This document shows, piece after piece, positions 10,938 to 52,100 of a stretch of 64,000 nucleotides of DNA (within the stretch, counting starts at the first letter, position 1; each line of letters starts with the position of its first letter). The stretch covers positions 1,178,001-1,242,000 of the forward strand of contig LSRY02000018.1 of assembly GCA_001643675.2 (NCBI GenBank), given 5' to 3'. Under the pieces are notes generated by a model. That model had not been told where the DNA came from and searched no databases. It saw nothing but the letters and a program-made list of their open reading frames with translations. The DNA is from Monocercomonoides exilis PA203 (Eukaryota > Protista > Preaxostyla). The position numbers and the translations under genes were made by a program.

Positions 10938-10986
10938 TTATTAAACAATAAAGAAATTTGAATATTATTTTTGATCAAAGCAAAAA

Positions 10987-25499: not shown

Positions 25500-25530
25500 A
25501 TATGTTTTCAATGAAAAAGATAGAAGTTTC

Positions 25531-26092: not shown

Positions 26093-29000
26093 ATGCTTCA
26101 TAAGCTTTATATTTTACTTTTTTGCATTGTAATCTCAGTGGAGCATAAGAGTTCTAAGATAGAAAATCAATTAGAAACATATTTTGTGACAAGTGAGCCT
26201 CAAAACTACACAATCATACTAAAAAATAAGATCAATGAGCATTGCCAAGTGAGGACATGTGCTCATCTGGTGAATTCATCCCTTGTTCTTTCCCGGTCGT
26301 GTTTGTTGAAAGGGAGTATAGGAGTGGTGGAAACTGTGGATGTTCTGTCTGAAATGAAGATATCTGACTGTGAGCTGGAAGCAGAGGGTGTGATGGGAAG
26401 TTCGTTTTTTGTGAGTGTTGCTGGTGTTGTGGAAATGAACAATATTTCAGTTGGATCAGGGAAGCAGGGAATGTGTGTGAATTCGCTTTTTTCGAACAGG
26501 CAGATTGGCAGAAAAGATGGGGCAAGTGGCTCAGTTCTTTTGAAATCCTCGAATTTTTTGTCACTCTCCGTTTCAGAGGGGCCGTTCATGGATGCCTATG
26601 GAACAAACAGCATCTGGATGTGTGAGACAGTGTTCAGCAACATTTCTGTGGAAAGGAAAGTGGGAGGACACAGAAATGTTGGAAGGGATGGCTGCCAAAC
26701 AACAATGGTTGGCTGCTGTTTCGTTTCGATGGAAGATGTGTTTTATGGGGGCATCGTCAACCCAGGCTGTTGTACTATGTCTCATTTGAACTCGATCAAC
26801 AACACATACACAAACATCAACAGAGTCAAGAATGCGAATCAAACATATTCCGATGTTGAAGGGCATCAGTCTTTGAATTGCTCGGGATCCTTTGAAGATG
26901 ACACTTTCATCAATTGCTCAGCAACATCTGGTGGCGCAATTTCAATTTCAGGGTTAGAATCTGCTCTCACAGCCACAAGATGTCAATTCCAAAAGTGTTC
27001 AGCAAGGAACAATGGAGGGGCTATCAGTGGGGAAAGAATGCTTTCAACGAGAGTGAATTCGAGTGTTTTCAACAACATTTCAGGGGGGGAAAATACTTCA
27101 ATTGGATATGGAGGATGTTTGCATTTTCTTGAGGTTTTAGATGGATCCTTGATTGAGAATTCTGTATTCAACAATATCTATCAATGCACCTCCGGTGGGT
27201 CGATTTATTTCAGAGCATTAAGCAGTTATCAATATTCAAATACACCGGATTCCATTTCAAATTGTACCTTTGCGAACAGCACAGTTAGAAATGGAACTGA
27301 TGGTTGTGTTGGATATGAGCAAACAAAATCAAACTTCACAGTTACAGAATATTATTGTCAGAATTCAAGTTGCCAGCATGATGCGGGATCTCTTTTTTTT
27401 GCGGTATTTCCAGGAAAGGATTATTCCAATTCAAGAGTATCATTTTGTTTTTTCCACAACAATTCATGTGGAGCGAATTTCAATGGAAATGATGTGTATG
27501 TGCAAGATGGATCAGGATTGTTTTTGGGAGACAAATTCGTTGAATGCTTTTCCACCACTTTGTCCAAAAGATTGCATCACACTCTGAAAGGGACACAGAA
27601 TGAATGGATTCCGTTGTTTGACACCCGATTTGTGGATGTGGTCTCTGGAGATGATGAAGAGTGGACATGTGGGATGAGAGCAGACCAGCCATGCAAAACA
27701 GTGAAAGGTGCGCTGGACCACTCGGGAGAGGAGCACTCGTGGGTTGTGAAAGTGGGGAGCGAAATCACATATGAATCGGGAATGGAGATTGGGGGAAAGT
27801 GGTTGGGATTGAATCGACAGAACACAGCAGAGAAGCGAGAAATGCGATGATGTGGAATGGAGAGGGGGGAAGGCTGTTTGGGATTGGGGCAGGAAGGCTG
27901 AAGATAAGGTGGATGAATGTGAGTGTGAAGATGGCAGGGTGGGTGAGTGTGTCAGTGTTTGTGATGAGTGGAGACGGGGAGCTGAGAGTGGACGAGAGTG
28001 TTGTGGGGTGTGTTTGCGATGGGGAGGATTGTGGGATGGAAAGAGCAGTGTTTGTGCTTGGGGGTGGAGAGACACGGATTGTGAGCTCGTTGATTGTGGG
28101 GATGAGATTCAGGATGGGAGGGAGTGTTTTTGGGATGAGTGGAAGGGCGAGGGTTGTGATGGAGGGATCGGAGGTGAGCGGGGTTGTGAAGACAGAAGGG
28201 AACGGAAGCGTGGTAGAGAGGGTTGTTGGGGAGGGAGAGGTGTTTGAGTTTGACAACTGCACAGTGCGGGGGTGTGAGTGCAGGGAGGGAGATGGGGGAG
28301 GAATATATGTGTGTGTGAAGAAGGGAGGGAAGGTGGGGTGGGAAACAGCACATCGACAGAAAACACTGTGGAGTTTGTGGGGTGCCAGGCAGGGAGTGGG
28401 GGTGGTGAAAGGGGAGGGAGGGGAGGGAGAGGAGGAGGGGTGTATTTGCGGGTGGAGGATGAGGATGTGGATCTGTGTGTGAAGAATGTGGGATTTGTCG
28501 AGAACAGAGGGGAGGAAGGGAAGGATTTGTTTGTGGAATCGGGGGATCTGAAAGGGTGTGTGAATGTGAAGAGATTTGTGCATGTGAAGGAATGGAGCAA
28601 TGGGAGTGTGGAGAGTTGTGTGGGGGTTGATGAGAAGTGGCCGGATGTGATGATTCCGCTGGTGTTCTATGTGATGGAGAGGGAGGAGAGGGTGGTGGTG
28701 GGGAGCGGAGGGCATGATGTGTCAGCGTGTGGATTCATGGAGTATCCGTGTCGGAGCGTGTGGTATTCGATGGAGCAGCAGGGTGGAGGGAGGAAGGAGG
28801 TGGTGGTGGTTGGGGAGTACCGGATGGAGGAGAATGTTTTGTTTGGTGGAGGACAGGAGTATGTGTTGAATGGAGGAGGAAGGGAAGGAGAAAAGGGCAG
28901 AAGTGGTGGTTGTGGGGAGCACGTCAGGAGCAGCTGGGGTTGTGACGATCGGAGGGGTTGGGAGGATGGAGGAGCTGGGGCTGGTGCTGGAGGCAGAGCT

Positions 29001-32000
29001 GGCAGAAGAAGGGATGAGTGTGGCCAGTGTGAGCGGAGATGGTGGGGAGGTGGAGATGGCGAAATGCACAGTGCGAGGGGATGGGTGCGAAAATGGAGTG
29101 GGGTTCAGTTTTGTGAGGGCGAGTGGGGGAAAAGTGACGCTGAGCGAGTTGGAAGTGTTTGTTGTTGCAGGATATGAGGAGTCGAGATCGTTTGTGGAGG
29201 TGAGTGGAGGAGGATGCATTGTCAGCGTGAGGAATTCGAGTGTGGAAGGAGGAGGAGGTGGAGCGGGAAAGAGGAGCCGGTTTCTGAAAAGTGAGGGAGC
29301 AGGGAGTGTTGAGCTGTGGAACAGCACATTGAGAGGGATTGTTGTGGGAGGGGGAGATGGGGGGATTGTGTCAGGGGTTGTGGGGCTTGGGCAGAAAATA
29401 AGTATTGATGGGGGAACATTGAATGGGGTGTGCATGGAGGGGAATGGCGGGGGAGTGGAGGTGGTTGTGTCGGATGGCGGAACAGTGGAAGTTGGGAGGC
29501 GGCTGAGCACGGAGTTTTCATTGTGCAGTGCGGGGATGAGAAATGAGGGAGGGGGAGTTGGAGGGGGAGTTGGAGTGGGAAGAGGAGGGTTTGGAGGGGG
29601 GATGATGGTGAAGATGGAGGAAGGGAGCAGAGAGATATATGTGAAGACAGTGAAGTTCAGCGGGTGCAGTGCAGGAAAGGCGGGGAGAGACATATTCATG
29701 GAGGCAGAAAAGCTGTCGGAGGTGGTGGACAGCGAAAGGATGGGATGGATCACGAATGTGTCAGACCGGGCAGGGGCGATGGGGTATGAGAATGGATGTG
29801 AGCACGGGATCCCGCTTGTGCTGTATCTGCAGCCAGAGCCGTCGGTGATTGCAGTCGGGGGAGCAGAGAGCTGGGATTTTGAGCGATGTGGATACGAAGG
29901 AGCTGGGTGCAGAACACTGGACTATGCGATGGAGAAGCGGGGAAGCATCCTGGGGCTTCGGAGCACGATTGAGATGAGTGTGAGTCTGGAGCGGGAGCAT
30001 GTGATTGGGGAAGGGACTGTTGTTGTGGAAGGGAAAGGGGCAGGGTGTGTGGTGGATGTGGGGGGAAGCGGGGAAAAGAAGCAGGATGAGCTGGTGGTGA
30101 ACAAGGCGACGACCACAATTGGGAATGTGGGGATTCAGGTGCCTTGTGGGTTGAACGGGAGAAGAAGTTTTGTGAAGAGCATTGGAGGGGCGCTGACGAT
30201 GAGGAGTGTGGTTGTTGTTGCGAAGGAGGGGAGCATGGTGGGGTTCAGGATTGTTGAGGCGACAGGAGGGAGTGTGATTCTGTCTCAGGTGGAGATGAGC
30301 GGGATCTGTTTCGGCGAGTGTCCGTTCTGTGAAGCGAGGGATGAAGGATGGGTGACAGTGTCATCGTGCACAGTGAGTGGGTGCAGCACCACATGTGGAG
30401 GAGGGCTTGTGCATGTGGAGGGAGGAGGGTCGATGAGCGTGCAAGGATCGGAGCTGACAGGGGTGGGAAGAGTGGGTGGTGGGAGGGCAGTGTGTGGGAA
30501 GGGAGGAAAGAGTGTGGAGATCTTGAACTCGAACATGAGTCTGTGGAAGGTGGGAGACGGGGATGGCGGGGCAGCGTATGTGGAGGTTGGGGAAGGGAGT
30601 GTGTTTGTGTGGAAGGGGAATGTTGTGAGAGACAGCATATCGGAAGGGGGGTGTGGAGGGGGATTGAAGATTGGAGTTGAGGGAAGCGGGAAGGTGAGGG
30701 TTGGGCAGAGCGGGGTGGTGACAAAGTTTGTGGGATGCAGGGCATTGAAGAAGGAAAACAGAGGAGGATGTGGAGGAGGGGTGGCGATGGAGTTTATTGG
30801 GGAAGGTGAAGTGGGAAGAGACTATTTGGTGGAAGGTTTGACATTCGAAGACAACATGGCAGAAAGAGGGGCAAAGATGTTTGTGGAAGCAGAGGAGCTG
30901 TGGAGGGTTGTGACAGCGGAGAGTGTGAAAGTGGGAGGGGTGGAGGCAGCAGGGACAAGCAATGAGCATGTTGGATTCGACAAAGGGGAGGAGCTGGATG
31001 TTCCGCTTTGGGTGTGTGTGAGTGAATGGGAAGAGCCGGGGTATGTGGGGGAAGAAGGGGTGGACTACAGGGTGTGTGGGTTTGAGAGGTATCCGTGCGG
31101 GTCAGTTGGGTTTGCGATCGGGGCGCGGTTTGGGGTGGGGAAGGTGCACATCCGACTTGTGGAGTCATACGTGATAAGGGCAGAGATAGTGGCAGAAAGG
31201 CAGGAGGTGGATATTGAAGGGGCAGTTGAAGGGGCAGGTGTTGGAGTGGCGAGGGATGTGGAAGGGGTGGAGAGTGTGTGTTTGGAACGAGAGGAGGGGT
31301 GGGGCGATTTTGCGGGATGAAAATGGGAGTGCCGAGCTCGTTTGCACCAGCTCGGAGAAGCTTGTTTTGCTGCAGCGGAGGGGAGCTGTGTGTGGAGAAG
31401 TGGGAGATGGAAGCAGAGGGAGGGGCTGCGACATATTGTGTGGCAGAGTGCACAGCAGGGCTGATGACGCTGCGGAATGTGACAGTGAAGGATGTGAACA
31501 TTTTGACAGAGACTGGTGTTGTTGTGGTTGTTGTGAAGGGCGATGGAGCAAAAGGGGTGATTGACTTGCTGGTGTTGGAGAACATAACGGGAGGAGGGAG
31601 GGAGGATTGGTGGAGCTTGGGGGAGGGGCAACAGCGAAGTGGGGCAACTCAACAGTTGGGTCATGTGTGTTTGGGGAGCATGGGGCAGTGAGATTTGAGA
31701 GAGGGGTGAGCATGGAAATGGGGAACAACACGTTTGAAGGGGTGGCTCGAGAGAGTGGGAAAGGAGGGGTGATGGAAGGGGTCGTTGGGGGTTGGAGAAG
31801 GTGGTTGTGAAGGATTGTCGGCTGATTGAAGTGGAGTGCCGGGAAGGGAGCGGAAAGGGAGGAGGGGGATACGTGGAGGTTGAGGAAGGAGGAGAGTTTT
31901 GTTTGATTCGAACAGGGTTTGGGGGAACAAGGTGAACAGTGGGGATGGGCAGGGGGCGGGATGTATCTGGTGCTGGGATCGAGGAATGTGAAATACAGTG

Positions 32001-35000
32001 TGAAGATGGTGGAGTTTGGGGAGAACGAGGCGTATGAGGGGAAGAACGCGTATGTTGTGTGTGCGGATGCACGAGCACTGGTGAACGAGAAGTGGTGGAG
32101 TGGGTCGGCGAGGGAGTCGGATGGAGAAGAGAAGCAGCTGTGGGTGTATGATGAGGCGAGCGGGCGGAGCCTGTCGATGCTGCCGTATCTGTTTCCGGCA
32201 GACGAAGCGATTGTGTTTGTGAATGGAGGGAGGGGAGCAACACAAAGGATTGCGGGGAGGAGGTGCGGCCGTGCTTGGATGTGGTGTATGGGGTGAAGCA
32301 AATGGGGGAAGGGCAAAGGATAGTGCAGATTGTGGGGAATGGAAGGGTGGATGGGGCGGCGAAGGGAAAGGGAGGATGGCTGACGATTCAGGGAAGAAGG
32401 AGACAAGGGCTTTGGTGGCGGTTGGAAGGGAGGGGCATTTGGAGTTGACAGGAGAGGCAGGGATGGTGGGGCTGATGCTGAGCAGACTGAGGTTTTGCCT
32501 TCCATGCACATCGACACATGGGGAGGTGATAGAGGTGAGGGCCGGGGAGTGTTCGATTGTGAACTGCTCATTTGAGGCAGGAGAGGAAGGAGCAGGAGCA
32601 GGAGGAGGAGCAGAGACAACAGGAATGGGGATGTGGATAGGAAGGGGAAGTGGGGGTCATTGGAGATGAGCGGAATCAGGATAGAGGATGTCAGGTTTGG
32701 AGCAGGATGTGGGGTGTTTGATGTGGAAGGAGGAGAAGTGAGTGTTGAAGGGCATTTATTGGCGGGGTGGATGGAGAGGGCAGTTCGGTGATTGTGTGTG
32801 AGAAGTGTGAGAGAGTGAATGTGAGTGGGGTAGAGATGGGAAACTGCAGTTGTGGAGAGGCGGTTGTTGTGCTGAGGGGAGTGAAGAGAGGGTGGATTGG
32901 GAATGGGAGCATGGTGGATGGGTGTGTGTCATCAAAGGGAAAGGGGGGCTGGCTGAGGTGGGAGGCAAGCGAGGAGGAGGAGGAGGAGGAGGAGGAGAAA
33001 GAGAATGAAAAAGAAGAAGAAGAAGGAGAGGTGATGATCGAAGGAATAGAGGTGAAGGGGTGTGTGGCAGAGGGGGAGGAAGGGAAAGGAGGAGGAATAT
33101 GGATGAGGCTGAATGGGAGGAAGGAGGGGGAGTTGTTGTTGAGGGATGTTGTGTTTGGGAGGAACAGAGCGAGAGAGGGGAGGGATTTGTATGTGGAATG
33201 TGAGTCACTGAACAGGACAGTGAAGGCAGAGTGGATAGTGAATGTTGTGTGTGGAGAAGGAGAAGGGGAAGGAGAAGTGGAGATGAGAGGGAGAGACAGG
33301 GAGCACTTTTTTGGAGAAGCAGTGGACTTGATGATGTTTGTTCTGCAATATGTGAGCAGGAGTGTTTGTGTGGGGAGGAAGGGGTTTGACATGGTTGGGT
33401 GCGGGAGCACAGCGTACCCCTGTGCAACATTCTGGAGAGGATTCATGAACACAGAGGCGAGCAGCGAGAAGAAGGAAATGATTATTGACGGGGAGTGCGA
33501 GGTGAGGAGGAGCTATGACTTGTCGCGGTTTGTGATCCGATCGGCAGGCGGAGCGAGTGGAGAAGAGAAGATGGGAACACTGAAATTTGGAGGGGGCTTG
33601 GATGAAGAGGCAGGAGGAGGAGGAGAAGGAGTTGTTCGGAACATGGAAGGATTGAAGGTTGAGAAGATAAAGTTTTTGGTGGGGGCGCAGCTGCCTGGGA
33701 GCAAAGGGTGTGTGATCTATTCGTACTCGTATGTGGGAGGGGTGGAGCTGTCAGAGAGCATTGTTGAGGAGGAAATGGGGGTGTGGCTGGGGTTCAGCTT
33801 TGTGGTTGTGGAATGTGGGGAGTTGACAGTGAGAGGGTGCGTGGTGAAAGGGATTTGGACGTTGGCTCCTGTGTTGAAGGTGTCAGTGGCAGGGAGCGGA
33901 TTGATTGAAAACACGCAGTTTGAGGATGTGAGTATTGGAGACAGCAGTGTTGTGGAAGTGGTTGGGACAGGGAGCAAGGGAGGTGGGAGATGGAACGGGG
34001 AGAACAGGATGGCTGTGAATGGATGCTCGTTTGTGGGGCTGAAGTCGGAGGTTGGAGGAGAAGGGGTGGTGCTGAGAGGAAGTGTGTTTGGAGAAGTGGT
34101 TGTGAATGGGTGCAAGGTGGAGGATGTGTTTGCCGGAGGGTCGTTGAGGGAGGCGGGATAGGGATATGTGTGAAAGGGGAAGGGAGAATGGAGGTGAATG
34201 GAACGAGTGTGAAGAAGTGTATGTGCGAGAGGAGGAGTGGGAAAGGAGGAGGATGTATTTGATGTGCACGGAAGCGCTGAGGGAATTGCCATTTGGAGTG
34301 AAGAACATGATATTTGGAGGGAATGAGGCATGGATGGGGAGGAACATGTTTGTGGTGGCAGCAGACCTGAATGGAAGTGTGAATGAAGAGAGTCTGAATG
34401 TGTTGTTGGAAGGAATGGGATGGGACGAGAAATCGTTTTGTGGGGAAGATGAGATGGTGGGGGTTGTGGACCTGCTGATGTTTGTGATGAGTTATGAGAG
34501 CAGCACAGTGCATGTGTCGACAAGGGGGCTGGATGTGAGGCGGTGTGGAAGCGAGAAGGAGCCGTGCAAGACATTTTATGGAGGGTTCATGCACATTGGA
34601 GGAGAAGGAGAAGAGGATGATGGGGAGAAGAAGGTTGTGGTGGAGGATGCGAGTGTGATGAGGGAAGGATACGACTTGTCGGGTTTTGGAATTGAGGGGG
34701 TGATGGTGAGGTTGAGACAGGGAAGAAAGCGATTCTGTTGATGGAGAACGGAGGGGCAGGAGGAGAGAGCGAGGCATGGATGGAAAACCGGGGAAGGCTG
34801 GGGATAAGGGAGATTGGAATTGAGGTGGGGAAAGGGTTTGAGAGCAGAAAGGGGGCGATTATTGTGAATGAAGGGGAAAGCTGGAGCTGGGGAAATGTGA
34901 GTTTGTGTCGGAGAGCAGTGCGAACATGCCGGGGAGGTATTCATTTGTGGTGTGCATGGGAGGAGAGATGGAGGCAGAAGAGGTGAGAGTGAAGGATGTG

Positions 35001-38000
35001 TTTTATGAGAGAAGTGTGTTTGTGATTCGGGGAGTGAGGGAGTGCAAAGTGGAGAAGATGCATGGATCGTCTGTGAGCCTGTGGGGAGGGGCAGTGTTTG
35101 AGATTGATTGCGAGGAAGGGGCAGAATGTTCGGGGAGAGGTCGGGAGTGGTTGTGAATGGGAGCACATTGGAAGGGATCAAGCGGAATGGGGAAGGGGCG
35201 AGTGTGATGGAGTGCGGGACGTCGAGGTGTGTGGATGTGGAGATAGTGGGGTGTGTGTTTGAGGTGTGTGTGTCGTCGGAGAGCGAGAAAGGGGGGATGA
35301 TGATGATGTGTGTGGAGGAAGGAGGGAGGATTGGGGTGAGGAAGTCGGAGGTGCGGCAGTGCAGCTGCTCGACGAGGAATGGGAAAGGAGGAGGGATGTA
35401 TGTGAGGAGCACAGTTGAAGGAGACGTGGAGATGATGTTTTCGGGGATCGAGTTTGAATCGAACACGGCGCATGTGGGGCGAGACATGTTCATCGAGTGC
35501 CACGACATCGGATCGCAGATAAATGAGACGCAGTTCAAGCTGGTGCTGAGCAGCGAGGTGTACAACCAAATCAACGCGATCTACGGGATGGATGAATGCG
35601 AGCATGCGCTTGAGCCGGTGAACCTGCTGGAGTTCATTATGACGTACCAGGCAGACACGATATTTGTGTCAGGCAGCGGGGCAGGAGCTGGGCTGGACAC
35701 AAAGAAGTGTGGGAGCCGGGCACTTCCGTGTGCTTCGATCGGGTATGGGCTGGGCCACATGACGAAGATATATGAGAGCAAGCTAGTTGTGGATGGGGAA
35801 AGCGAGATTGAAAGCGAAATTGAGCTGGCAGAAGTGGGAGTGCAGTCGAAGTGGAAAGAGCAAGCAGAGGTGCATGTGAGGTCTGGGATGAAGCAGACGA
35901 AGGATTGTGTGGTGGAGAGTGTGGGAGAGGTGGAGCTTGAGCAGCTGGTGTTTGTCTTTTCTGGTTCGTTTGTGTCTTCGCACAAAATGTTCATGGAGGT
36001 GGCATCAGGAACAGCTGAGCTGAGGAGCATTGGTGTGAGCAGCGAAGGCGAGGCAGGTGTTGGGAGAGTTCCATTTGTGCTGTTTAGCATCGGAAGCGGG
36101 GAGCACGGCGGAGAGAGTGGGATGAAGATGTGGGGATGCTCGATTGGAGGGATCAGCTGCGAACACGCGTTGATTGAAATTGGGAAGTGTGGCTCGCTGA
36201 TGGCAACAGAAGTGGTGCTGAAGGATATTGAGTGCGCAAAGTCGCTTGTTCAGATTGGGGCTTTGAGCGGGAATGTGTCTGTGAAAGAGGTGGAAGTGAA
36301 AAGAGCAAAGTTGGTGGAGGGTGCAGTGATAAGCCATGTGTGGACTGGAGGAAATGAGAATGAAGACTCAGAAGTCTCATCCATTTGCGGGATATCGCTG
36401 AGCCGCTTCGAGAACATCAGCAGAGAGACAAGCTCTCCATCGGTGATTTGTTGGGAGAGCGGTGCATCAGAGGGCTGGAATTGGTGAACTGCACGTGCAC
36501 TGGATGCACATCGGAGGCAGAGAGGAAAGGATGTTGGCATCTGTGGAGCAAATCATGTGGTGATGGGTGCATGCTTGTTTGCACTGGAAGACACACAAAG
36601 GATGGAGAAAGGGGTGGAATGGGATGGAGGTGTGTGCGAGTGGAGTGGATCGTTGGTGGATTGCACAGACTCATTGGTGATGATGAGAGACACAACGATT
36701 GCGAATGCGTCGTGTGGAGGGCTGTCGATGTGTGGGGAAGCGTGACGATTGTGAAAGGAGAATTCATCAACAACAACCCATCAATGGCAAAGTACCCTTC
36801 GATGCGGCGGAATGTGCTGTGTAGTGGAAATGGGATGGTGGATGTTCAGAGCCTGAAGGGAGGGGATGGGATGCAGCCGAGCACATCGCTGTGGATTATG
36901 GATGGTGGATGCGAGCTGATGGGGATTCCAGCAGAACGGGCATCGGCACTGTTCATCCCTCGGTTGGAGACAGTGAATATGGAAGAGAGCGGAAAAGAAA
37001 TGAAGCTGATTCTGGGCGGGATGCTGCTTCTCCCGTGCAATCTGAGCGTGCGTGTTGTTTCTGCTGTTGGGAGCACAGAATCTCTGGAAACATATGAACT
37101 GGAAGAGGAAGCAATTGTTTCAGAGACGGAAGCACATTATTGGATTGAGAAAGCAATGATCTGCTCTGCACCAGCCGAAGCAGAAGTTTCTGTGTGCATT
37201 CTGTTTGAAACGGTGATTCCGGTTCGTCGACTGCAAGGCATGTTCTGAAGAACCGAACAGAGACAAAAGCAAATGGAGATAAAAACTTGTTGAAAGTGGA
37301 AAAGAAGAAAACACTTTTTGGCCAATTATTGTAATTGCACTTGTTGTCATATTGTTGATTGTTCTGATTGTTTCGATTATTCTTGCTGTTCGATGGAGAA
37401 AGGCAAGGAATGAAGCGAAAGATTTGAGAGAGATAGTGAATGATAACATCAGAAAAGATCCGAAGGCGTTTGAGATGATAACGATGGAGATGTCTCCCGA
37501 GGAGCAGTGGAGGAGAGCAGAAAGAGAGGCAGAGAAGAAGAATGAAGAGAGGATAAAGAAGAGGGTGTATGATTCAAATATGGAACATTCAGAGTCATCA
37601 GAACATCTTCTATCTGAGAGTGGCTCAACTGAATACATATTGGGGAGAGACTCAGACAAAATCCCAGAATGGGCATTGGAGAAAGAAGAAGAAGAAGAGA
37701 TAAGAAAGCGAACACCTTCTCCATCTATCTCATCCACTTCAACTACTTCAACAACTGATTCAGATTCAACATTTGTTCGAATGGAGGATATGTGTCCAAC
37801 AACCTCTTCAATGTCGAATCTGGTAGATGCAATGGCCTGTTCATCACCACATGAGAAACTGATTGTGGATCTGAGGGATTCGCTATTTTTGTTGCTTCAT
37901 GGAAGAAATGAGAAAAAGAAATGGCGATCGGAAGTCTTCAGGAGAGGGAGCAAACAGCTTCCCAGATCCTGTTCTGGGTAGCTAGCCTTGCTCTCCACTC

Positions 38001-38687
38001 CTTTGATGAAATGGAAAACAAGCTTCAGTCATTGTCCAGTCTGAGTCCTCACATTGTACTCTTCTCTGAGCACATGGTGATCTGCATTGTGATGCACTCT
38101 GATTTCATTTCATCTGATGATTCTGATTCATCATCCATCTCATCATCAACAGTTGTCACTTCAGCAAGTGATGATGATGATGACAGTGACTCCCTTCCAC
38201 CATCAGCATTTGAGGATGAGGATGATTACAAGAAAGAGTGCTTGAGGTGGATGGCACCAGAATTGCTGATGAACAGGAAGATGGGGGCAACGAAGAAGTC
38301 TGTTGTGTTCTCGATAGGGATGATGCTGTGGGGTGCCTGACGCTGGAGATCCCGTTTGGGGAGTATCCAGCAGAGGTGGCGGGACAGAAGATAGCGAATG
38401 GGGAGAGGCCAGATGTTGCGAGGGCAGGCTCGCCAGATGGTGTGAAAGCAATCATCGCTTGTCTGTCAATGGGCCGGTACGCCAGGCCAACACTCACAGA
38501 CTTGAAGCGGGCATTCATCAGTCATTTTCCGGCTGGCTGTGCTGTTCTGACAGTGTCTGATGCAATTGGGCTGGAGGAAACAACAGACAGAGGCAAAAGA
38601 GAAAGTGGAAGTGCACAAAGTGGAAGTGCACAAAGTGGAAGTGCACAAAGTGGAAGTCTTGTGAGTGGGTACAGCACATTTGAATGA
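26093..38687 (+). CDS. Giant (~4,200 aa) single-pass receptor-like protein, copy 1: signal peptide, 8 Cys-capped beta-helix-like modules, TM, kinase-like C-lobe; many 1-bp homopolymer frameshifts as assembled
   Basis: Tiled ORFs from 26093 to 38687 are colinear with the opposite arm; GGAI and GGG.Y motifs; TM WPIIVIALVVILLIVLIVSIILAVRWRK; LRWMAPELL...VFSIGMMLWE...PF...RP. Confidence 0.85.
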
Positions 38688-39875
38688 GGAGAGAAGACCA
38701 GGGATGGAGGGAATGGAGATAAACGGGAAGAAGAGAAGCAAAGGAATCTCCCAATCAGTTGAAGGAAATGAGACTAGATTTGATGAAATGATTATGTGCT
38801 TCGGGAAGGGAAGATGCAAGAGGGATATGAATATTTCGAAAAAAAGAAAAGAAATAAGATGAAGATGCCGTGCAGGATCTGTCTGCATTAATGGATAGCA
38901 GAGTTTTTTTGAAGGGTGTTGCTGTTCGTGAATGGGCAGGCAGATGACTGTTTACACTTTTTGTTTGATGGCAACTGTGCTGTCGGTGAATCACTTCATC
39001 CACTTCAAACAACAATCATAATATCCATGTATTCAATAACTGAAATCTTTTTTCTTTTTTGTTTTCCCCAAGAAACGAATGAGAAAGGAAAAAATTCAGA
39101 AATATTCGTTTTCATAATGATTGCGCATCAAACATATCAGCCAAAAATATTTGGATATGTTTTTGAAGGGTCAAAGATTCATTGGGATCAATATTTTTTG
39201 AAAATAAAATCATCAAAATTGCTGTTGTTATTGTTGTTGTTGAATTTTTATCACAACCTTGAAAACTCATAATATTTTTAAAATAACAAATCACTTCTTT
39301 TAATTATTAAAAAAATTAAACATAGAATAAAAGAATAATATCAAAATCGATCAAATGGAAGTTGGATTATATATTCTTTCAAATTCTTTGTTCATTTGTT
39401 AAAAATCGTTGGTTGTTTGAACTTTCCAAAATAAAGTCCTCAATAACATTTCATTTTTGAAATATAAATAACATATGGCTGTTCCTCTTTGTAATCACGC
39501 TTTCGTTCGATATCGGATTAAATAATTTTCCTCAGTGGGAAAACGAAAATTAAATTGCTTTTGAATGAACAATTGAAATAAAATGAATTTATTTGTTTTT
39601 CTTTCTTTTTTTTTTCATTCTATTTTTCCCCTCATAATTGTAAGGCTTTGAATTTTACATAAAATAGGAGATAATCGCATAGAACAATCACAATTTTTTA
39701 AGACAATATTTATATGTGGTTGTGTTCGATAATTCTTTTCAAAGAAAAAATTTTATATTTTATATGTGTTATTCTTTTTGAAAAGTTGCAAATGTTTAAT
39801 TTTCGAATGAAATAAAAATCTCACATCCAATCCAAACCAAATATAATCACCCAGTTGATTATTTAGAAATCATAT
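26161..39875. repeat. Giant palindrome, left arm (~13.7 kb)
   Basis: Reverse complement of 40083-53829 throughout, including the non-coding 3' region. Confidence 0.97.
38602..38657. repeat. 15-bp tandem repeat (aaagtggaagtgcac) encoding SGSAQ; mirrored at ~41312-41367
   Basis: Directly visible. Confidence 0.9.
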
Positions 39876-40107
39876 CGTTTTTTGAGGTGTTGATTTTTCA
39901 AAGATTGTTTGTCATTGTATGAAGATTTTGTATTTTAATGAGAAAATTCATCAAAACCATTTCAAATACAAATGGTTTTTTTGAATCAAAGATAAAAATG
40001 CATTCAATAAGCCTATTCACTTTTCAATTTTTTCTATTGATATTCAAAAAATATTTATGCACCGAAATTATTGTGTGTAAAAATATGATTTCAAAATAAT
40101 CAACTGG
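39851..40107. mobile_element. MITE-like element (family M, copy 3) at the palindrome axis
   Basis: ccagttgattatttagaaatcatat ... atatgatttcaaaataatcaactgg; interior homologous to the copies at 25065 and 25531; similar length. Confidence 0.7.
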
Positions 40108-43100
40108 GTGATTATATTTGGTTTGGATTGGATGTGAGATTTTTATTTCATTCGAAAATTAAACATTTGCAACTTTTCAAAAAGAATAACACATATAAAA
40201 TATAAAATTTTTTCTTTGAAAAGAATTATCGAACACAACCACATATAAATATTGTCTTAAAAAATTGTGATTGTTCTATGCGATTATCTCCTATTTTATG
40301 TAAAATTCAAAGCCTTACAATTATGAGGGGAAAAATAGAATGAAAAAAAAAAGAAAGAAAAACAAATAAATTCATTTTATTTCAATTGTTCATTCAAAAG
40401 CAATTTAATTTTCGTTTTCCCACTGAGGAAAATTATTTAATCCGATATCGAACGAAAGCGTGATTACAAAGAGGAACAGCCATATGTTATTTATATTTCA
40501 AAAATGAAATGTTATTGAGGACTTTATTTTGGAAAGTTCAAACAACCAACGATTTTTAACAAATGAACAAAGAATTTGAAAGAATATATAATCCAACTTC
40601 CATTTGATCGATTTTGATATTATTCTTTTATTCTATGTTTAATTTTTTTTAATAATTAAAAGAAGTGATTTGTTATTTTAAAAATATTATGAGTTTTCAA
40701 GGTTGTGATAAAAATTCAACAACAACAATAACAACAGCAATTTTGATGATTTTATTTTCAAAAAAATATTGATCCCAATGAATCTTTGACCCTTCAAAAA
40801 ACATATCCAAATATTTTTTGGCTGATATGTTTGATGCGCAATCATTATGAAAACGAATATTTCTGAATTTTTTTCCTTTCTCATTCGTTTCTTGGGGAAA
40901 ACAAAAAAAGAAAAAAAGATTTCAGTTATTGAATACATGGATATTATGATTGTTGTTTGAAGTGGATGAAGTGATTCACCGACAGCACAGTTGCCATCAA
41001 ACAAAAAGTGTAAACAGTCATCTGCCTGCCCATTCACGAACAGCAACACCCTTCAAAAAAACTCTGCTATCCATTAATGCAGACAGATCCTGCACGGCAT
41101 CTTCATCTTATTTCTTTTCTTTTTTTTTTCGAAATATTCATATCCCTCTTGCATCTTCCCCTTCCCGAAGCACATAATCATTTCATCAAATCTAGTCTCA
41201 TTTCCTTCAACTGATTGGGAGATTCCTTTGCTTCTCTTCTTCCCGTTTATCTCCATTCCCTCCATCCCTGGTCTTCTCTCCTCATTCAAATGTGCTGTAC
41301 CCACTCACAAGACTTCCACTTTGTGCACTTCCACTTTGTGCACTTCCACTTTGTGCACTTCCACTTTCTCTTTTGCCTCTGTCTGTTGTTTCCTCCAGCC
41401 CAATTGCATCAGACACTGTCAGAACAGCACAGCCAGCCGGAAAATGACTGATGAATGCCCGCTTCAAGTCTGTGAGTGTTGGCCTGGCGTACCGGCCCAT
41501 TGACAGACAAGCGATGATTGCTTTCACACCATCTGGCGAGCCTGCCCTCGCAACATCTGGCCTCTCCCCATTCGCTATCTTCTGTCCCGCCACCTCTGCT
41601 GGATACTCCCCAAACGGGATCTCCAGCGTCAGGCACTCCCACAGCATCATCCCTATCGAGAACACAACAGACTTCTTCGTTGCCCCCATCTTCCTGTTCA
41701 TCAGCAATTCTGGTGCCATCCACCTCAAGCACTCTTTCTTGTAATCATCCTCATCCTCAAATGCTGATGGTGGAAGGGAGTCACTGTCATCATCATCATC
41801 ACTTGCTGAAGTGACAACTGTTGATGATGAGATGGATGATGAATCAGAATCATCAGATGAAATGAAATCAGAGTGCATCACAATGCAGATCACCATGTGC
41901 TCAGAGAAGAGTACAATGTGAGGACTCAGACTGGACAATGACTGAAGCTTGTTTTCCATTTCATCAAAGGAGTGGAGAGCAAGGCTAGCTACCCAGAACA
42001 GGATCTGGGAAGCTGTTTGCTCCCTCTCCTGAAGACTTCCGATCGCCATTTCTTTTTTCTCATTTCTTCCATGAAGCAACAAAAATAGCGAATCCCTCAG
42101 ATCCACAATCAGTTTCTCATGTGGTGATGAACAGGCCATTGCATCTACCAGATTCGACATTGAAGAGGTTGTTGGACACATATCCTCCATTCGAACAAAT
42201 GTTGAATCTGAATCAGTTGTTGAAGTAGTTGAAGTGGATGAGATAGATGGAGAAGGTGTTCGCTTTCTTATCTCTTCTTCTTCTTCTTTCTCCAATGCCC
42301 ATTCTGGGATTTTGTCTGAGTCTCTCCCCAATATGTATTCAGTTGAGCCACTCTCAGATAGAAGATGTTCTGATGACTCTGAATGTTCCATATTTGAATC
42401 ATACACCCTCTTCTTTATCCTCTCTTCATTCTTCTTCTCTGCCTCTCTTTCTGCTCTCCTCCACTGCTCCTCGGGAGACATCTCCATCGTTATCATCTCA
42501 AACGCCTTCGGATCTTTTCTGATGTTATCATTCACTATCTCTCTCAAATCTTTCGCTTCATTCCTTGCCTTTCTCCATCGAACAGCAAGAATAATCGAAA
42601 CAATCAGAACAATCAACAATATGACAACAAGTGCAATTACAATAATTGGCCAAAAAGTGTTTTCTTCTTTTCCACTTTCAACAAGTTTTTTATCTCCATT
42701 TGCTTTTGTCTCTGTTCGGTTCTTCAGAACATGCCTTGCAGTCGACGAACCGGAATCACCGTTTCCAAACAGAATGCACACAGAAACTTCTGCTTCGGCT
42801 GGTGCAGAGCAGATCATTGCTTTCTCAATCCAATAATGTGCTTCCGTCTCTGAAACAATTGCTTCCTCTTCCAGTTCATATGTTTCCAGAGATTCTGTGC
42901 TCCCAACAGCAGAAACAACACGCACGCTCAGATTGCACGGGAGAAGCAGCATCCCGCCCAGAATCAGCTTCATTTCTTTTCCGCTCTCTTCCATATTCAC
43001 TGTCTCCAACCGAGGGATGAACAGTGCCGATGCCCGTTCTGCTGGAATCCCCATCAGCTCGCATCCACCATCCATAATCCACAGCGATGTGCTCGGCTGC

Positions 43101-46100
43101 ATCCCATCCCCTCCCTTCAGGCTCTGAACATCCACCATCCCATTTCCACTACACAGCACATTCCGCCGCATCGAAGGGTACTTTGCCATTGATGGGTTGT
43201 TGTTGATGAATTCTCCTTTCACAATCGTCACGCTTCCCCCACACATCGACAGCCCTCCACACGACGCATTCGCAATCGTTGTGTCTCTCATCATCACCAA
43301 TGAGTCTGTGCAATCCACCAACGATCCACTCCACTCGCACACACCTCCATCCCATTCCACCCCTTTCTCCATCCTTTGTGTGTCTTCCAGTGCAAACAAG
43401 CATGCACCCATCACCACATGATTTGCTCCACAGATGCCAACATCCTTTCCTCTCTCTGCCTCCGATGTGCATCCAGTGCACGTGCAGTTCACCAATTCCA
43501 GCCCCTCTGATGCACCGCTCTCCCAACAAATCACCGATGGAGAGCTTGTCTCTCTGCTGATGTTCTCGAAGCGGCTCAGCGATATCCCGCAAATGGATGA
43601 GACTTCTGAGTCTTCATTCTCATTTCCTCCAGTCCACACATGGCTTATCACTGCACCCTCCACCAACTTTGCTCTTTTCACTTCCACCTCTTTCACAGAC
43701 ACATTCCCGCTCAAAGCCCCAATCTGAACAAGCGACTTTGCGCACTCAATATCCTTCAGCACCACTTCTGTTGCCATCAGCGAGCCACACTTCCCAATTT
43801 CAATCAACGCGTGTTCGCAGCTGATCCCTCCAATCGAGCATCCCCACATCTTCATCCCACTCTCTCCGCCGTGCTCCCCGCTTCCGATGCTAAACAGCAC
43901 AAATGGAACTCTCCCAACACCTGCCTCGCCTTCGCTGCTCACACCAATGCTCCTCAGCTCAGCTGTTCCTGATGCCACCTCCATGAACATTTTGTGCGAA
44001 GACACAAACGAACCAGAAAAGACAAACACCAGCTGCTCAAGCTCCACCTCTCCCACACTCTCCACCACACAATCCTTCGTCTGCTTCATCCCAGACCTCA
44101 CATGCACCTCTGCTTGCTCTTTCCACTTCGACTGCACTCCCACTTCTGCCAGCTCAATTTCGCTTTCAATCTCGCTTTCCCCATCCACAACTAGCTTGCT
44201 CTCATATATCTTCGTCATGTGGCCCAGCCCATACCCGATCGAAGCACACGGAAGTGCCCGGCTCCCACACTTCTTTGTGTCCAGCCCAGCTCCTGCCCCG
44301 CTGCCTGACACAAATATCGTGTCTGCCTGGTACGTCATAATGAACTCCAGCAGGTTCACCGGCTCAAGCGCATGCTCGCATTCATCCATCCCGTAGATCG
44401 CGTTGATTTGGTTGTACACCTCGCTGCTCAGCACCAGCTTGAACTGCGTCTCATTTATCTGCGATCCGATGTCGTGGCACTCGATGAACATGTCTCGCCC
44501 CACATGCGCCGTGTTCGATTCAAACTCGATCCCCGAAAACATCATCTCCACGTCTCCTTCAACTGTGCTCCTCACATACATCCCTCCTCCTTTCCCATTC
44601 CTCGTCGAGCAGCTGCACTGCCGCACCTCCGACTTCCTCACCCCAATCCTCCCTCCTTCCTCCACACACATCATCATCATCCCCCCTTTCTCGCTCTCCG
44701 ACGACACACACACCTCAAACACACACCCCACTATCTCCACATCCACACACCTCGACGTCCCGCACTCCATCACACTCGCCCCTTCCCCATTCCGCTTGAT
44801 CCCTTCCAATGTGCTCCCATTCACAACCACTCCCGACCTCTCCCCCGAACATTCTGCCCCTTCCTCGCAATCAATCTCAAACACTGCCCCTCCCCACAGG
44901 CTCACAGACGATCCATGCATCTTCTCCACTTTGCACTCCCTCACTCCCCGAATCACAAACACACTTCTCTCGCAAAACACATCCTTCACTCTCACCTCTT
45001 CTGCCTCCATCTCTCCTCCCATGCACACCACAAATGAATACCTCCCCGGCATGTTCGCACTGCTCTCCGACACAAACTCACATTTCCCCAGCTCCAGCTT
45101 TCCCCCTTCATTCACAATAATCGCCCCCTTTCTGCTCTCAAACCCTTTCCCCACCTCAATTCCAATCTCCCTTATCCCCAGCCTTCCCCGGTTTTCCATC
45201 CATGCCTCGCTCTCTCCTCCTGCCCCTCCGTTCTCCATCAACAGAATCGCTTTCTTCCCTGTCTCAACCTCACCATCACCCCCCTCAATTCCAAAACCCG
45301 ACAAGTCGTATCCTTCCCTCATCACACTCGCATCCTCCACCACAACCTTCTTCTCCCCATCATCCTCTTCTCCTTCTCCTCCAATGTGCATGAACCCTCC
45401 ATAAAATGTCTTGCACGGCTCCTTCTCGCTTCCACACCGCCTCACATCCAGCCCCCTTGTCGACACATGCACTGTGCTGCTCTCATAACTCATCACAAAC
45501 ATCAGCAGGTCCACAACCCCCACCATCTCATCTTCCCCACAAAACGATTTCTCGTCCCATCCCATTCCTTCCAACAACACATTCAGACTCTCTTCATTCA
45601 CACTTCCATTCAGGTCTGCTGCCACCACAAACATGTTCCTCCCCATCCATGCCTCATTCCCTCCAAATATCATGTTCTTCACTCCAAATGGCAATTCCCT
45701 CAGCGCTTCCGTGCACATCAAATACATCCCTCCTCCTTTCCCACTCCTCCTCTCGCACATACACTTCTTCACACTCGTTCCATTCACCTCCATTCTCCCT
45801 TCCCCTTTCACACATATCCCTATCCCGCCTCCCCTCAACGACCCTCCGGCAAACACATCCTCCACCTTGCACCCATTCACAACCACTTCTCCAAACACAC
45901 TTCCTCTCAGCACCACCCCTTCTCCTCCAACCTCCGACTTCAGCCCCACAAACGAGCATCCATTCACAGCCATCCTGTTCTCCCCGTTCCATCTCCCACC
46001 TCCCTTGCTCCCTGTCCCAACCACTTCCACAACACTGCTGTCTCCAATACTCACATCCTCAAACTGCGTGTTTTCAATCAATCCGCTCCCTGCCACTGAC

Positions 46101-49100
46101 ACCTTCAACACAGGAGCCAACGTCCAAATCCCTTTCACCACGCACCCTCTCACTGTCAACTCCCCACATTCCACAACCACAAAGCTGAACCCCAGCCACA
46201 CCCCCATTTCCTCCTCAACAATGCTCTCTGACAGCTCCACCCCTCCCACATACGAGTACGAATAGATCACACACCCTTTGCTCCCAGGCAGCTGCGCCCC
46301 CACCAAAAACTTTATCTTCTCAACCTTCAATCCTTCCATGTTCCGAACAACTCCTTCTCCTCCTCCTCCTGCCTCTTCATCCAAGCCCCTCCAAATTTCA
46401 GTGTTCCCATCTTCTCTTCTCCACTCGCTCCGCCTGCCGATCGGATCACAAACCGCGACAAGTCATAGCTCCTCCTCACCTCGCACTCCCCGTCAATAAT
46501 CATTTCCTTCTTCTCGCTGCTCGCCTCTGTGTTCATGAATCCTCTCCAGAATGTTGCACAGGGGTACGCTGTGCTCCCGCACCCAACCATGTCAAACCCC
46601 TTCCTCCCCACACAAACACTCCTGCTCACATATTGCAGAACAAACATCATCAAGTCCACTGCTTCTCCAAAAAAGTGCTCCCTGTCTCTCCCTCTCATCT
46701 CCACTTCTCCTTCCCCTTCTCCTTCTCCACACACAACATTCACTATCCACTCTGCCTTCACTGTCCTGTTCAGTGACTCACATTCCACATACAAATCCCT
46801 CCCCTCTCTCGCTCTGTTCCTCCCAAACACAACATCCCTCAACAACAACTCCCCCTCCTTCCTCCCATTCAGCCTCATCCATATTCCTCCTCCTTTCCCT
46901 TCCTCCCCCTCTGCCACACACCCCTTCACCTCTATTCCTTCGATCATCACCTCTCCTTCTTCTTCTTCTTTTTCATTCTCTTTCTCCTCCTCCTCCTCCT
47001 CCTCCTCCTCGCTTGCCTCCCACCTCAGCCAGCCCCCCTTTCCCTTTGATGACACACACCCATCCACCATGCTCCCATTCCCAATCCACCCTCTCTTCAC
47101 TCCCCTCAGCACAACAACCGCCTCTCCACAACTGCAGTTTCCCATCTCTACCCCACTCACATTCACTCTCTCACACTTCTCACACACAATCACCGAACTG
47201 CCCTCTCCATCCACCCCGCCAATAAATGCCCCTTCAACACTCACTTCTCCTCCTTCCACATCAAACACCCCACATCCTGCTCCAAACCTGACATCCTCTA
47301 TCCTGATTCCGCTCATCTCCAATGACCCCCCACTTCCCCTTCCTATCCACATCCCCATTCCTGTTGTCTCTGCTCCTCCTCCTGCTCCTGCTCCTTCCTC
47401 TCCTGCCTCAAATGAGCAGTTCACAATCGAACACTCCCCGGCCCTCACCTCTATCACCTCCCCATGTGTCGATGTGCATGGAAGGCAAAACCTCAGTCTG
47501 CTCAGCATCAGCCCCACCATCCCTGCCTCTCCTGTCAACTCCAAATGCCCCTCCCTTCCAACCGCCACCAAAGCCCTTGTCTCCTTCTTCCCCTGAATCG
47601 TCAGCCATCCTCCCTTTCCCTTCGCCGCCCCATCCACCCTTCCATTCCCCACAATCTGCACTATCCTTTGCCCTTCCCCCATTTGCTTCACCCCATACAC
47701 CACATCCAAGCACGGCCGCACCTCCTCCCCGCAATCCTTTGTGTTGCTCCCCTCCCCTCCATTCACAAACACAATCGCTTCGTCTGCCGGAAACAGATAC
47801 GGCAGCATCGACAGGCTCCGCCCGCTCGCCTCATCATACACCCACAGCTGCTTCTCTTCTCCATCCGACTCCCTCGCCGACCCACTCCACCACTTCTCGT
47901 TCACCAGTGCTCGTGCATCCGCACACACAACATACGCGTTCTTCCCCTCATACGCCTCGTTCTCCCCAAACTCCACCATCTTCACACTGTATTTCACATT
48001 CCTCGATCCCAGCACCAGATACATCCCGCCCCCCTGCCCATCCCCACTGTTCACCTTGTTCCCCCAAACCCTGTTCGAATCAAACAAAAACTCTCCTCCT
48101 TCCTCAACCTCCACGTATCCCCCTCCTCCCTTTCCGCTCCCTTCCCGGCACTCCACTTCAATCAGCCGACAATCCTTCACAACCACCTTCTCCAACCCCC
48201 CAACGACCCCTTCCATCACCCCTCCTTTCCCACTCTCTCGAGCCACCCCTTCAAACGTGTTGTTCCCCATTTCCATGCTCACCCCTCTCTCAAATCTCAC
48301 TGCCCCATGCTCCCCAAACACACATGACCCAACTGTTGAGTTGCCCCACTTCGCTGTTGCCCCTCCCCCAAGCTCCACCAATCCTCCCCTCCCTCCTCCC
48401 GTTATGTTCTCCAACACCAGCAAGTCAATCACCCCTTTTGCTCCATCGCCCTTCACAACAACCACAACAACACCAGTCTCTGTCAAAATGTTCACATCCT
48501 TCACCGTCACATTCCGCAGCGTCATCAGCCCTGCTGTGCACTCTGCCACACAATATGTCGCAGCCCCTCCCTCTGCTTCCATCTCCCACTTCTCCACACA
48601 CAGCTCCCCTCCGCTGCAGCAAAACAAGCTTCTCCGAGCTGGTGCAAACGAGCTCGGCACTCCCATTTTCATCCCGCAAAATCGCCCCACCCCTCCTCTC
48701 GTTCCAAACACACACTCTCCACCCCCTTCCACATCCCTCGCCACTCCAACACCCGCCCCTTCAACTGCCCCTTCAATATCCACCTCCTGCCTTTCTGCCA
48801 CTATCTCTGCCCTTATCATGTATGACTCCACAAGTCGGATGTGCACCTTCCCCACCCCAAACCGCGCCCCGATCGCAAACCCAACTGACCCGCACGGATA
48901 CCTCTCAAACCCACACACCCTGTAGTCCACCCCTTCTTCCCCCACATACCCCGGCTCTTCCCATTCACTCACACACACCCAAAGCGGAACATCCAGCTCC
49001 TCCCCTTTGTCGAATCCAACATGCTCATTGCTTGTCCCTGCTGCCTCCACCCCTCCCACTTTCACACTCTCCGCTGTCACAACCCTCCACAGCTCCTCTG

Positions 49101-52100
49101 CTTCCACAAACATCTTTGCCCCTCTTTCTGCCATGTTGTCTTCGAATGTCAAACCTTCCACCAAATAGTCTCTTCCCACTTCACCTTCCCCAATAAACTC
49201 CATCGCCACCCCTCCTCCACATCCTCCTCTGTTTTCCTTCTTCAATGCCCTGCATCCCACAAACTTTGTCACCACCCCGCTCTGCCCAACCCTCACCTTC
49301 CCGCTTCCCTCAACTCCAATCTTCAATCCCCCTCCACACCCCCCCTTCCGATATGCTGTCTCTCACAACATTCCCCTTCCACACAAACACACTCCCTTCC
49401 CCAACCTCCACATACGCTGCCCCGCCATCCCCGTCTCCCACCTTCCACAGACTCATGTTCGAGTTCAAGATCTCCACACTCTTTCCTCCCTTCCCACACA
49501 CTGCCCTCCCACCACCCACTCTTCCCACCCCTGTCAGCTCCGATCCTTGCACGCTCATCGACCCTCCTCCCTCCACATGCACAAGCCCTCCTCCACATGT
49601 GGTGCTGCACCCACTCACTGTGCACGATGACACTGTCACCCATCCTTCATCCCTCGCTTCACAGAACGGACACTCGCCGAAACAGATCCCGCTCATCTCC
49701 ACCTGAGACAGAATCACACTCCCTCCTGTCGCCTCAACAATCCTGAACCCCACCATGCTCCCCTCCTTCGCAACAACAACCACACTCCTCATCGTCAGCG
49801 CCCCTCCAATGCTCTTCACAAAACTTCTTCTCCCGTTCAACCCACAAGGCACCTGAATCCCCACATTCCCAATTGTGGTCGTCGCCTTGTTCACCACCAG
49901 CTCATCCTGCTTCTTTTCCCCGCTTCCCCCACATCCACCACACACCCTGCCCCTTTCCCTTCCACAACAACAGTCCCTTCCCCAATCACATGCTCCCGCT
50001 CCAGACTCACACTCATCTCAATCGTGCTCCGAAGCCCCAGGATGCTTCCCCGCTTCTCCATCGCATAGTCCAGTGTTCTGCACCCAGCTCCTTCGTATCC
50101 ACATCGCTCAAAATCCCAGCTCTCTGCTCCCCCGACTGCAATCACCGACGGCTCTGGCTGCAGATACAGCACAAGCGGGATCCCGTGCTCACATCCATTC
50201 TCATACCCCATCGCCCCTGCCCGGTCTGACACATTCGTGATCCATCCCATCCTTTCGCTGTCCACCACCTCCGACAGCTTTTCTGCCTCCATGAATATGT
50301 CTCTCCCCGCCTTTCCTGCACTGCACCCGCTGAACTTCACTGTCTTCACATATATCTCTCTGCTCCCTTCCTCCATCTTCACCATCATCCCCCCTCCAAA
50401 CCCTCCTCTTCCCACTCCAACTCCCCCTCCAACTCCCCCTCCCTCATTTCTCATCCCCGCACTGCACAATGAAAACTCCGTGCTCAGCCGCCTCCCAACT
50501 TCCACTGTTCCGCCATCCGACACAACCACCTCCACTCCCCCGCCATTCCCCTCCATGCACACCCCATTCAATGTTCCCCCATCAATACTTATTTTCTGCC
50601 CAAGCCCCACAACCCCTGACACAATCCCCCCATCTCCCCCCTCCCACAACAATCCTCTCAATGTGCTGTTCCACAGCTCAACACTCCCTGCTCCCTCACT
50701 TTTCAGAAACCGGCTCCTCTTTCCCGCTCCACCTCCTCCTCCTTCCACACTCGAATTCCTCACGCTGACAATGCATCCTCCTCCACTCACCTCCACAAAC
50801 GATCTCGACTCCTCATATCCTGCAACAACAAACACTTCCAACTCGCTCAGCGTCACTTTTCCCCCACTCGCCCTCACAAAACTGAACCCCACTCCATTTT
50901 CGCACCCATCCCCTCGCACTGTGCATTTCGCCATCTCCACCTCCCCACCATCTCCGCTCACACTGGCCACACTCATCCCTTCTTCTGCCAGCTCTGCCTC
51001 CAGCACCAGCCCCAGCTCCTCCATCCTCCCAACCCCTCCGATCGTCACAACCCCAGCTGCTCCTGACGTGCTCCCCACAACCACCACTTCTGCCCTTTCT
51101 CCTTCCCTTCCTCCTCCATTCAACACATACTCCTGTCCTCCACCAAACAAAACATTCTCCTCCATCCGGTACTCCCCAACCACCACCACCTCCTTCCTCC
51201 CTCCACCCTGCTGCTCCATCGAATACCACACGCTCCGACACGGATACTCCATGAATCCACACGCTGACACATCATGCCCTCCGCTCCCCACCACCACCCT
51301 CTCCTCCCTCTCCATCACATAGAACACCAGCGGAATCATCACATCCGGCCACTTCTCATCAACCCCCACACAACTCTCCACACTCCCATTGCTCCATTCC
51401 TTCACATGCACAAATCTCTTCACATTCACACACCCTTTCAGATCCCCCGATTCCACAAACAAATCCTTCCCTTCCTCCCCTCTGTTCTCGACAAATCCCA
51501 CATTCTTCACACACAGATCCACATCCTCATCCTCCACCCGCAAATACACCCCTCCTCCTCTCCCTCCCCTCCCTCCCCTTTCACCACCCCCACTCCCTGC
51601 CTGGCACCCCACAAACTCCACAGTGTTTTCTGTCGATGTGCTGTTTCCCACCCCCACCTTCCCTCCCTTCTTCACACACACATATATTCCTCCCCCATCT
51701 CCCTCCCTGCACTCACACCCCCGCACTGTGCAGTTGTCAAACTCAAACACCTCTCCCTCCCCAACAACCCTCTCTACCACGCTTCCGTTCCCTTCTGTCT
51801 TCACAACCCCGCTCACCTCCGATCCCTCCATCACAACCCTCGCCCTTCCACTCATCCCAAAAACACTCCCTCCCATCCTGAATCTCATCCCCACAATCAA
51901 CGAGCTCACAATCCGTGTCTCTCCACCCCCAAGCACAAACACTGCTCTTTCCATCCCACAATCCTCCCCATCGCAAACACACCCCACAACACTCTCGTCC
52001 ACTCTCAGCTCCCCGTCTCCACTCATCACAAACACTGACACACTCACCCACCCTGCCATCTTCACACTCACATTCATCCACCTTATCTTCAGCCTTCCTG

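Follow-up and report, generated by a model that had tools for sequence, protein, structure and literature searches.

Short inverted repeats are known to seed large palindromes, as in the rDNA of Tetrahymena. MITEs of the Stowaway or Tc1-mariner type are short, non-coding elements that carry TIRs, are flanked by TA and are dispersed in the genome. Repeat-primed fold-back is itself already known: among human fold-back inverted duplications, 3 of 21 junctions lie in inverted Alu or LINE pairs (PMC3907307), relics of SIDER elements make up 68% of the Leishmania amplification repeats (PMC4028189), and in yeast the mismatches of imperfect repeats are corrected during fold-back, which is resolved by recombination in delta or PAU repeats (PMC10622511). 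Template switching has likewise been found to expand inverted repeats in yeast (PMC13100816).

The window analysed here is a stretch of 64,000 nucleotides from Monocercomonoides exilis PA203 (contig LSRY02000018.1, positions 1,178,001 to 1,242,000). Self-alignment of the window delimits two palindrome arms around a small central element, c:

26156-39875, + strand: left palindrome arm
40083-53833, - strand: right palindrome arm
39854-40104, no strand assigned: central MITE-like element c, ~251 bp, whose interior (39876-40082) is the palindrome spacer
39854-39875, + strand: left TIR remnant of c, 22 bp, with the family terminus and TA missing and the A at 39865 unhomogenised
40083-40104, - strand: right TIR remnant of c, with the same damaged terminus as the left

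In the assembled sequence the ~13.7-kb arms are 99.59% identical, with 13 mismatches and 39 gap openings, and are separated by a spacer of 207 nt; the innermost mismatch is a single A/T at 39865/40093. As in a fold-back inverted duplication, the single-copy spacer is edged by inverted homology that runs into the arms. The triplication typical of ODIRA was not found, the window holding two copies and one central junction, with both outer flanks unique. GC skew is extreme and mirrored at 28000-36000 and 44000-52000 (about +0.61 to +0.69), the coding strand of the ectodomain being G-rich.

Contigs from several sequencing runs were compared with the assembly; the DNA runs all come from one sample, possibly the window's own source, and run X5 is RNA from a second study. 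Bases absent from the left arm account for 33 of the 39 arm gaps (27083-39308), mostly in G runs, and P0125, the public gene model of the left arm, jumps over those gap sites. Since the contigs restore these bases, showing the right-arm state in 10 of the 12 rows listed (29 more are unlisted), the left-arm frameshifts are largely assembly errors. The contigs also carry substitutions where both assembled arms agree, the runs differing in allele (at least 17 sites in 29759-32963). M. exilis is reported to be monoploid, with ~0.04 SNPs per kb (PMC6759080), and these allele sets would therefore be paralogue differences, which implies that the assembly over-homogenised the arms; by contig evidence the arms differ by ~0.2-0.5% along most of their length.

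At the centre, an X4 arm contig starts exactly at 40094 with a depth of 114.4, and the contig joining arm to spacer start (39876/40083, on opposite strands) has a depth of 54.9 and a shorter side of 40 letters, 10 of them ambiguous. A contig fork of this kind, in which depth halves at the TIR mismatch, is expected if two arms meet one spacer. The left junction stands directly in a contig row and the right one is read from the fork together with the assembly (42 pieces are unlisted). Farther out, inner-arm contigs in X4 have depths of 254-395 versus ~100 at most other loci listed. At 97% likeness no contig lies over 40010-40057 in X4 or over most of 39914-40150 in X1-X3, which carries no weight because the records are filtered. 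Chimeric reads seeded by hairpins are a known phenomenon, and fold-back chimeras at the hairpin of c could have joined a gene to a paralogue elsewhere; assembled arms that are more alike than the contigs allow, gaps that are mostly left-arm losses and an imperfect consensus would fit such an assembly or library artefact. Two allele sets in an organism reported as monoploid (PMC6759080), the raised inner-arm depth and a fork placed exactly at the TIR mismatch nevertheless make it highly improbable, and the question whether the palindrome is real can largely be answered with yes.

The spacer had been described from the sequence as the interior of a dispersed TIR element rather than unique DNA, which is borne out by two further copies in the window:

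25064-25320, + strand: family copy a, TIRs matched at 22 of 25 positions, TT on both flanks
25534-25792, + strand: family copy b, flanked by TA at either end, its TIRs degenerate (17 of 26 columns match)

The comparison with shuffled sequences that had been proposed as a check was run, and both c-a and c-b came out above all 500 dinucleotide shuffles: c shares 65.9% global identity with b (local score 173, reached by 0 of 500) and 62.3% with a (local score 115, 0 of 500), the identity of shuffled sequences being 52-54%. With the TIRs removed, b-c still scores 140 (0 of 500 shuffles) and a-c a modest 55 (0 of 500 shuffles, with other AT-rich windows reaching 55-67 in a 484-window scan), and the a-b similarity is not significant, its score being reached by 43 of 500 shuffles. 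The ~251-bp element is thereby confirmed, with a proper span of 39854-40104 in place of the start at 39851 given earlier, since 39851-39853 are the end of a neighbouring element, Y.

Beyond these copies, a 19-nt terminal motif has 9 matches in the window where 0.09 are expected (3 mirror pairs leave 6 independent matches). In run X4, contigs continue into unrelated DNA ahead of 25066 (20 contigs) and past 25321 (17 contigs; flank agreement 0.48), and the consensus of these loose ends places TA beside both termini, as around b, where copy a itself has TT; TA being palindromic, TSD and TIR are indistinguishable without an empty site. The summed depth over the bin of copy a is 27,334 in X4 versus ~100 for most single loci listed, a sum that is not a copy number and whose ratio in X1 is ~sevenfold lower; we offer hundreds to low thousands of copies as a reading of contig depth. 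All three copies are short and non-coding (251-259 bp, with no overlapping ORF of at least 120 aa), and copy a has a fold z of -3.9. No Rfam match was found in 24800-41000, a Pfam scan of 32 window ORFs gave no transposase family, and the metagenome contigs scanned contained no match to the 24-nt TIR.

Judged by these sequence features, the family is abundant, TIR-bounded, dispersed and MITE-like, mostly with TA at its flanks. It resembles Stowaway-type MITEs in its length of ~250 bp, non-coding character, ~24-bp TIRs, TA at several termini and dispersal, but the copies here, just 59-66% alike, are distant relatives of one another; a Tc1/mariner affinity is a possible lead. Element c is a decayed MITE-like element, probably a transposon relic and likely immobile. 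Having diverged by 34-38% from a and b, with arms that differ by ~0.2-0.5%, it is older than the last homogenisation of the arms. The hairpin element at 4905-5150, which is 82% self-complementary along 229 bp and shares the terminal motif, appears to be a long-TIR relative of the family.

The immediate surroundings of c add a second element to the centre of the palindrome:

39765-39853, + strand: TIR-like element Y, 89 bp, preceded by TA and fused head-to-head with c
40105-40193, - strand: mirror copy of Y in the right arm

The first 66 bp of Y are 80% like the hairpin element at 4905, its right end resembles the family TIR, and c begins directly after it, at 39854; 16 contigs with unlike flanks start at 39762, before Y, in run X4 (flank agreement 0.45-0.48 over these and the loose ends of a).

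The junction between arm and spacer falls inside the TIR of c. The TIRs match at 21 of 22 positions in the remnant (fold z -4.3), and c is without the family's first bases and without the flanking TA at both ends alike. Both ends instead carry an identical damaged, non-family terminus fused to the right end of Y, the terminus TGGGT being present in 6 of the 10 other ends tabulated, and further inside the TIR the left and right ends retain their own family-type sequence. Because damage that occurred one time now stands on both sides, copying or crossover entered the TIR, and the switch would lie between the shared variant and the unconverted 39865, at ~39856-39864. The continuity of the TIRs with the arms noted in the preliminary description is thus upheld, including the one A/T mismatch, with 22 bp of TIR remaining where ~25 bp had been given. 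It is very probable that the TIR of c formed the palindrome junction, a claim common to three of the readings weighed below, namely fold-back into a sister gene, deletion between TIRs and de novo origin of gene B.

The shared damaged terminus also argues against the possibility that c simply inserted at the tip of a perfect palindrome that was already there. Because TA is palindromic, an insertion into a tip of that sequence would seem symmetric, and the family is abundant, but a terminus and TA lost identically at both ends are unlike a fresh insertion, so that later damage and conversion into the TIR would be required as well as a palindrome as old as c, which makes this course very unlikely. 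By our own arithmetic, which takes ~10.5 kb of AT-rich DNA with two further family copies, the chance of the axis landing anywhere in a family copy is ~5% and that of centring within one base ~0.0006. It had been allowed at the outset that the family might be so abundant that a central copy is expected by chance; abundant it is, and exact centring still does not follow from it.

In 14 kb of left arm and spacer, the TIR pair of c is the strongest short-range inverted repeat (score 19), and one other reaches 13 or more (score 13). The score of c is partly a product of the palindrome event; copy a, which was unaffected by it, has an equal TIR score. TIR elements or the TIR-like motif account for 4 of the 5 best non-simple inverted repeats among 62 listed for the de-duplicated window, and if a junction needs inverted homology, TIR elements are predicted to be where it will form.

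A second inverted duplication, 5120-5715 / 17310-17904 (596 bp, 99%, 11.6 kb apart), enters the right end of the 4905-5150 hairpin element at its outer edge and has its inner edge ~90 bp past a TIR-like start at 5626; it is possibly another repeat-anchored copy event. A reading of its two copies as the ends of a 12.8-kb self-synthesising element was rejected, no supporting Pfam family being found in the enclosed ORFs scanned. Near-perfect short palindromes at 10834-10952 (46-bp stem, 6-nt loop, TIR-like T-run motif) and 15100-15164 (22-bp stem, 21-nt loop) may reflect self-templated hairpin correction. Direct repeats at 6583-7083 / 20915-22030, ~73% alike and without a Pfam match, are probably older paralogous genes, and Pfam identifies a CLC chloride channel ORF at 2430-4595 and an SPA/Avl9-type ORF at 59446-61935.

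Each arm holds most of a long receptor-like gene:

26093-38687, + strand: receptor-like gene A, ~4,200 codons, with signal peptide, long ectodomain, one TM helix and partial TKL kinase match
41282-53903, - strand: receptor-like gene B, in convergent orientation to A; its signal peptide differs from that of A, and 53834-53903 falls beyond the end of the arm

The arm ORFs match the kinase profile PF07714 in part (profile positions 161-257 of 258 only). A protein search gave 498 matches, and all 120 listed are M. exilis proteins, 67-83% identical along the C-terminal region; the N-terminal regions of the fetched family members are mostly 22-39% identical. The organism has 332 predicted tyrosine kinases, 320 of them TKL (PMC6759080). 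Protein searches for separate A and B products returned only P0125, the left-arm model with gaps across the frameshifts. A fragment at 14249-14407, which resembles the part of the arm genes next to the kinase (76%) and adjoins a 720-codon ORF (12116-14278), is probably part of another family member.

The outer edge of the palindrome is sharp at 26156/53833, without significant similarity beyond it, and immediately past the arm A and B each have a separate signal peptide in frame (ATG 26093 in A, ATG 53903 in B). The signal-peptide DNA of A and B shows no significant similarity (39-80 of 200 shuffles reach the scores), and its likeness stays at shuffle level when the upstream 300 bp are included (30-84 of 200); with 1,000 bp compared, 3 of 200 shuffles reach the local score and 147 of 200 the global one. 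An X1 contig that carries 195 additional letters at the 5' end has 19 differences from the left arm in 705 positions, and an X5 RNA contig covering 26161-26865 has 19 other letters like the X1 contig as well as 78 extra letters, which would fit the 75-nt 5' piece of B by length only. By bin arithmetic no contig is evident for gene A's own 5' end in X1, X3 and X5, which again carries no weight given the filtered records. In 26217-26829, the 16 contig alleles listed fall in 13 codons and alter the amino acid in 10 of them, hinting at ectodomain tip diversification between A and B that is hidden by the assembly; this is a warning that near-identical arms in this assembly conceal real amino-acid differences between the two genes.

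The gene pair shows at least three layers, namely unalignable 5' ends, an outer stratum at ~97% and ~12 kb at roughly 99.5-99.8%, and has accordingly been reworked on more than one occasion. A smooth identity gradient toward the axis was dropped, as the inner 1.2 kb has 2 candidate substitutions, each in one run, and is not clearly below the 0.2-0.5% of the arm middle, which is itself patchy.

Our preferred reading, to which we assign a probability of roughly 0.45, is that the TIRs primed a fold-back or template switch, by which one flank was copied outward, ending within an inverted sister gene that already existed. The event would start with a break or a stalled fork next to c, one TIR of c would pair with the other over ~20 bp with a 207-nt loop, and the non-matching end would be trimmed; synthesis would then run through the terminus, Y, the 3' intergenic DNA of 1.1 kb and the body of the gene, until homology let the strand rejoin within the sister gene. 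A gene pair already present would in this way have been overwritten and welded, without a new gene being made, and no transposase activity would be needed. That the sister gene was there beforehand we infer solely from two features, the 97% stratum and the signal peptide in frame.

The preliminary description had proposed that the TIRs primed the palindrome and thereby created the receptor gene duplicate. Its first half retains the support of the junction inside the TIR and of the shared damaged terminus; the creation of the duplicate is weakened by the different signal peptides, by the older ~97% stratum and by the equally good fit of a deletion between TIRs. If gene B did arise de novo by TIR-primed fold-back, the outer end would have been repaired onto unrelated DNA or onto a distant family member, and this repair partner would have given B its signal peptide. 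The sharp outer edge with nothing significantly similar beyond and an element c older than the arms are in keeping with such an origin, and possible 5'-end donors number in the hundreds (498 matches; 332 predicted tyrosine kinases, PMC6759080). It requires, however, an in-frame join right behind the signal peptide among N-terminal regions that are mostly 22-39% identical, and a separate account of the 97% outer stratum, and we hold it to be improbable.

A deletion between TIRs would imply an older, longer palindrome with a copy of c in each arm, in which the right TIR of one c and the left TIR of the mirror c are direct repeats. A deletion between these repeats would leave the interior of c as a stabilising spacer, and the TIR would set the spacer without starting the duplication. 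This secondary trimming yields the exact structure observed, shared damaged terminus included; it has been described for Lactobacillus inverted repeats (PMC5345009) and for SUL1 junctions in yeast (PMC4689423), a like origin has been suggested for inverted CNVs at human SINEs and LINEs (PMC10766186), and the layering (unalignable, ~97%, above 99.5%) speaks for a pair that is older and was reworked repeatedly. On the other hand, an extra, unseen ancestral state is needed, of which no remnant of a second c or former centre is present, and secondary junctions are just 3 of 92 in yeast (PMC10766186), so that we rate it as rather unlikely, while noting that priming and trimming lead to the same final structure and that one locus is at hand. 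The further suggestion that the TIR keeps homogenising the arms finds no support, a 22-bp TIR being superfluous for arms that already share 13 kb of homology; for later conversion between the arms, nothing beyond the arms is likely to be needed.

Canonical NHEJ is reportedly absent from metamonads (10.1101/2021.03.14.435266). In an oxymonad without this pathway, hundreds to thousands of dead MITEs might act as preferred fold-back primers, with long palindromes routinely centred on single MITEs, a generalisation that we consider improbable. If true, it would amount to a transposase-free expansion and re-homogenisation of a huge receptor-like kinase family, and it would connect the unclassified repeats of the oxymonad genome (35%, within 46% repeats; PMC8767320) with its largest gene family. 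As a single case, the locus illustrates a known repair outcome.

In the full-text literature searched, which included few subscription papers, no report was found of a large palindrome with the interior of one MITE as its spacer, nor of a single element that supplies both halves in this way. Spacer deletion in Lactobacillus and human CNVs (PMC5345009, PMC10766186) shares the principle that inverted repeats turn direct within a palindrome and bound its spacer, and in the accessible portions of those reports it is not described for two TIRs of one MITE. The yeast fold-back and ODIRA/TID events are similar in that a short interrupted repeat stays at the centre, mismatches are corrected to one repeat and the outer end is resolved in repeats or a gene family (PMC10622511, PMC4689423); the yeast seeds, by contrast, are chance short repeats with short spacers, and ODIRA leads to triplications, whereas no third copy is present in the window. 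Like the Leishmania inverted amplicons, the palindrome is found in a protist and extinct mobile elements serve as passive inverted repeats (PMC4028189), but the Leishmania repeat pairs measure at least 200 bp and the amplicons are extrachromosomal and drug-selected (PMC4028189), as opposed to a ~22-bp TIR pair in a chromosome. With the human fold-backs the palindrome shares arms split by a single-copy spacer that inverted homology borders (PMC3907307). Those arise between two separate retroelements, with spacers of 0.8-70 kb and a terminal deletion (PMC3907307), while here one DNA-element relic is both halves, the spacer is 207 nt, and the structure is interstitial and fixed. Taken together, relics of mobile elements are known as passive inverted repeats that work in pairs, whereas at this locus a single element gives both halves, and any intact MITE would accordingly offer, ready for use, a site of fold-back or trimming whose spacer is fixed.
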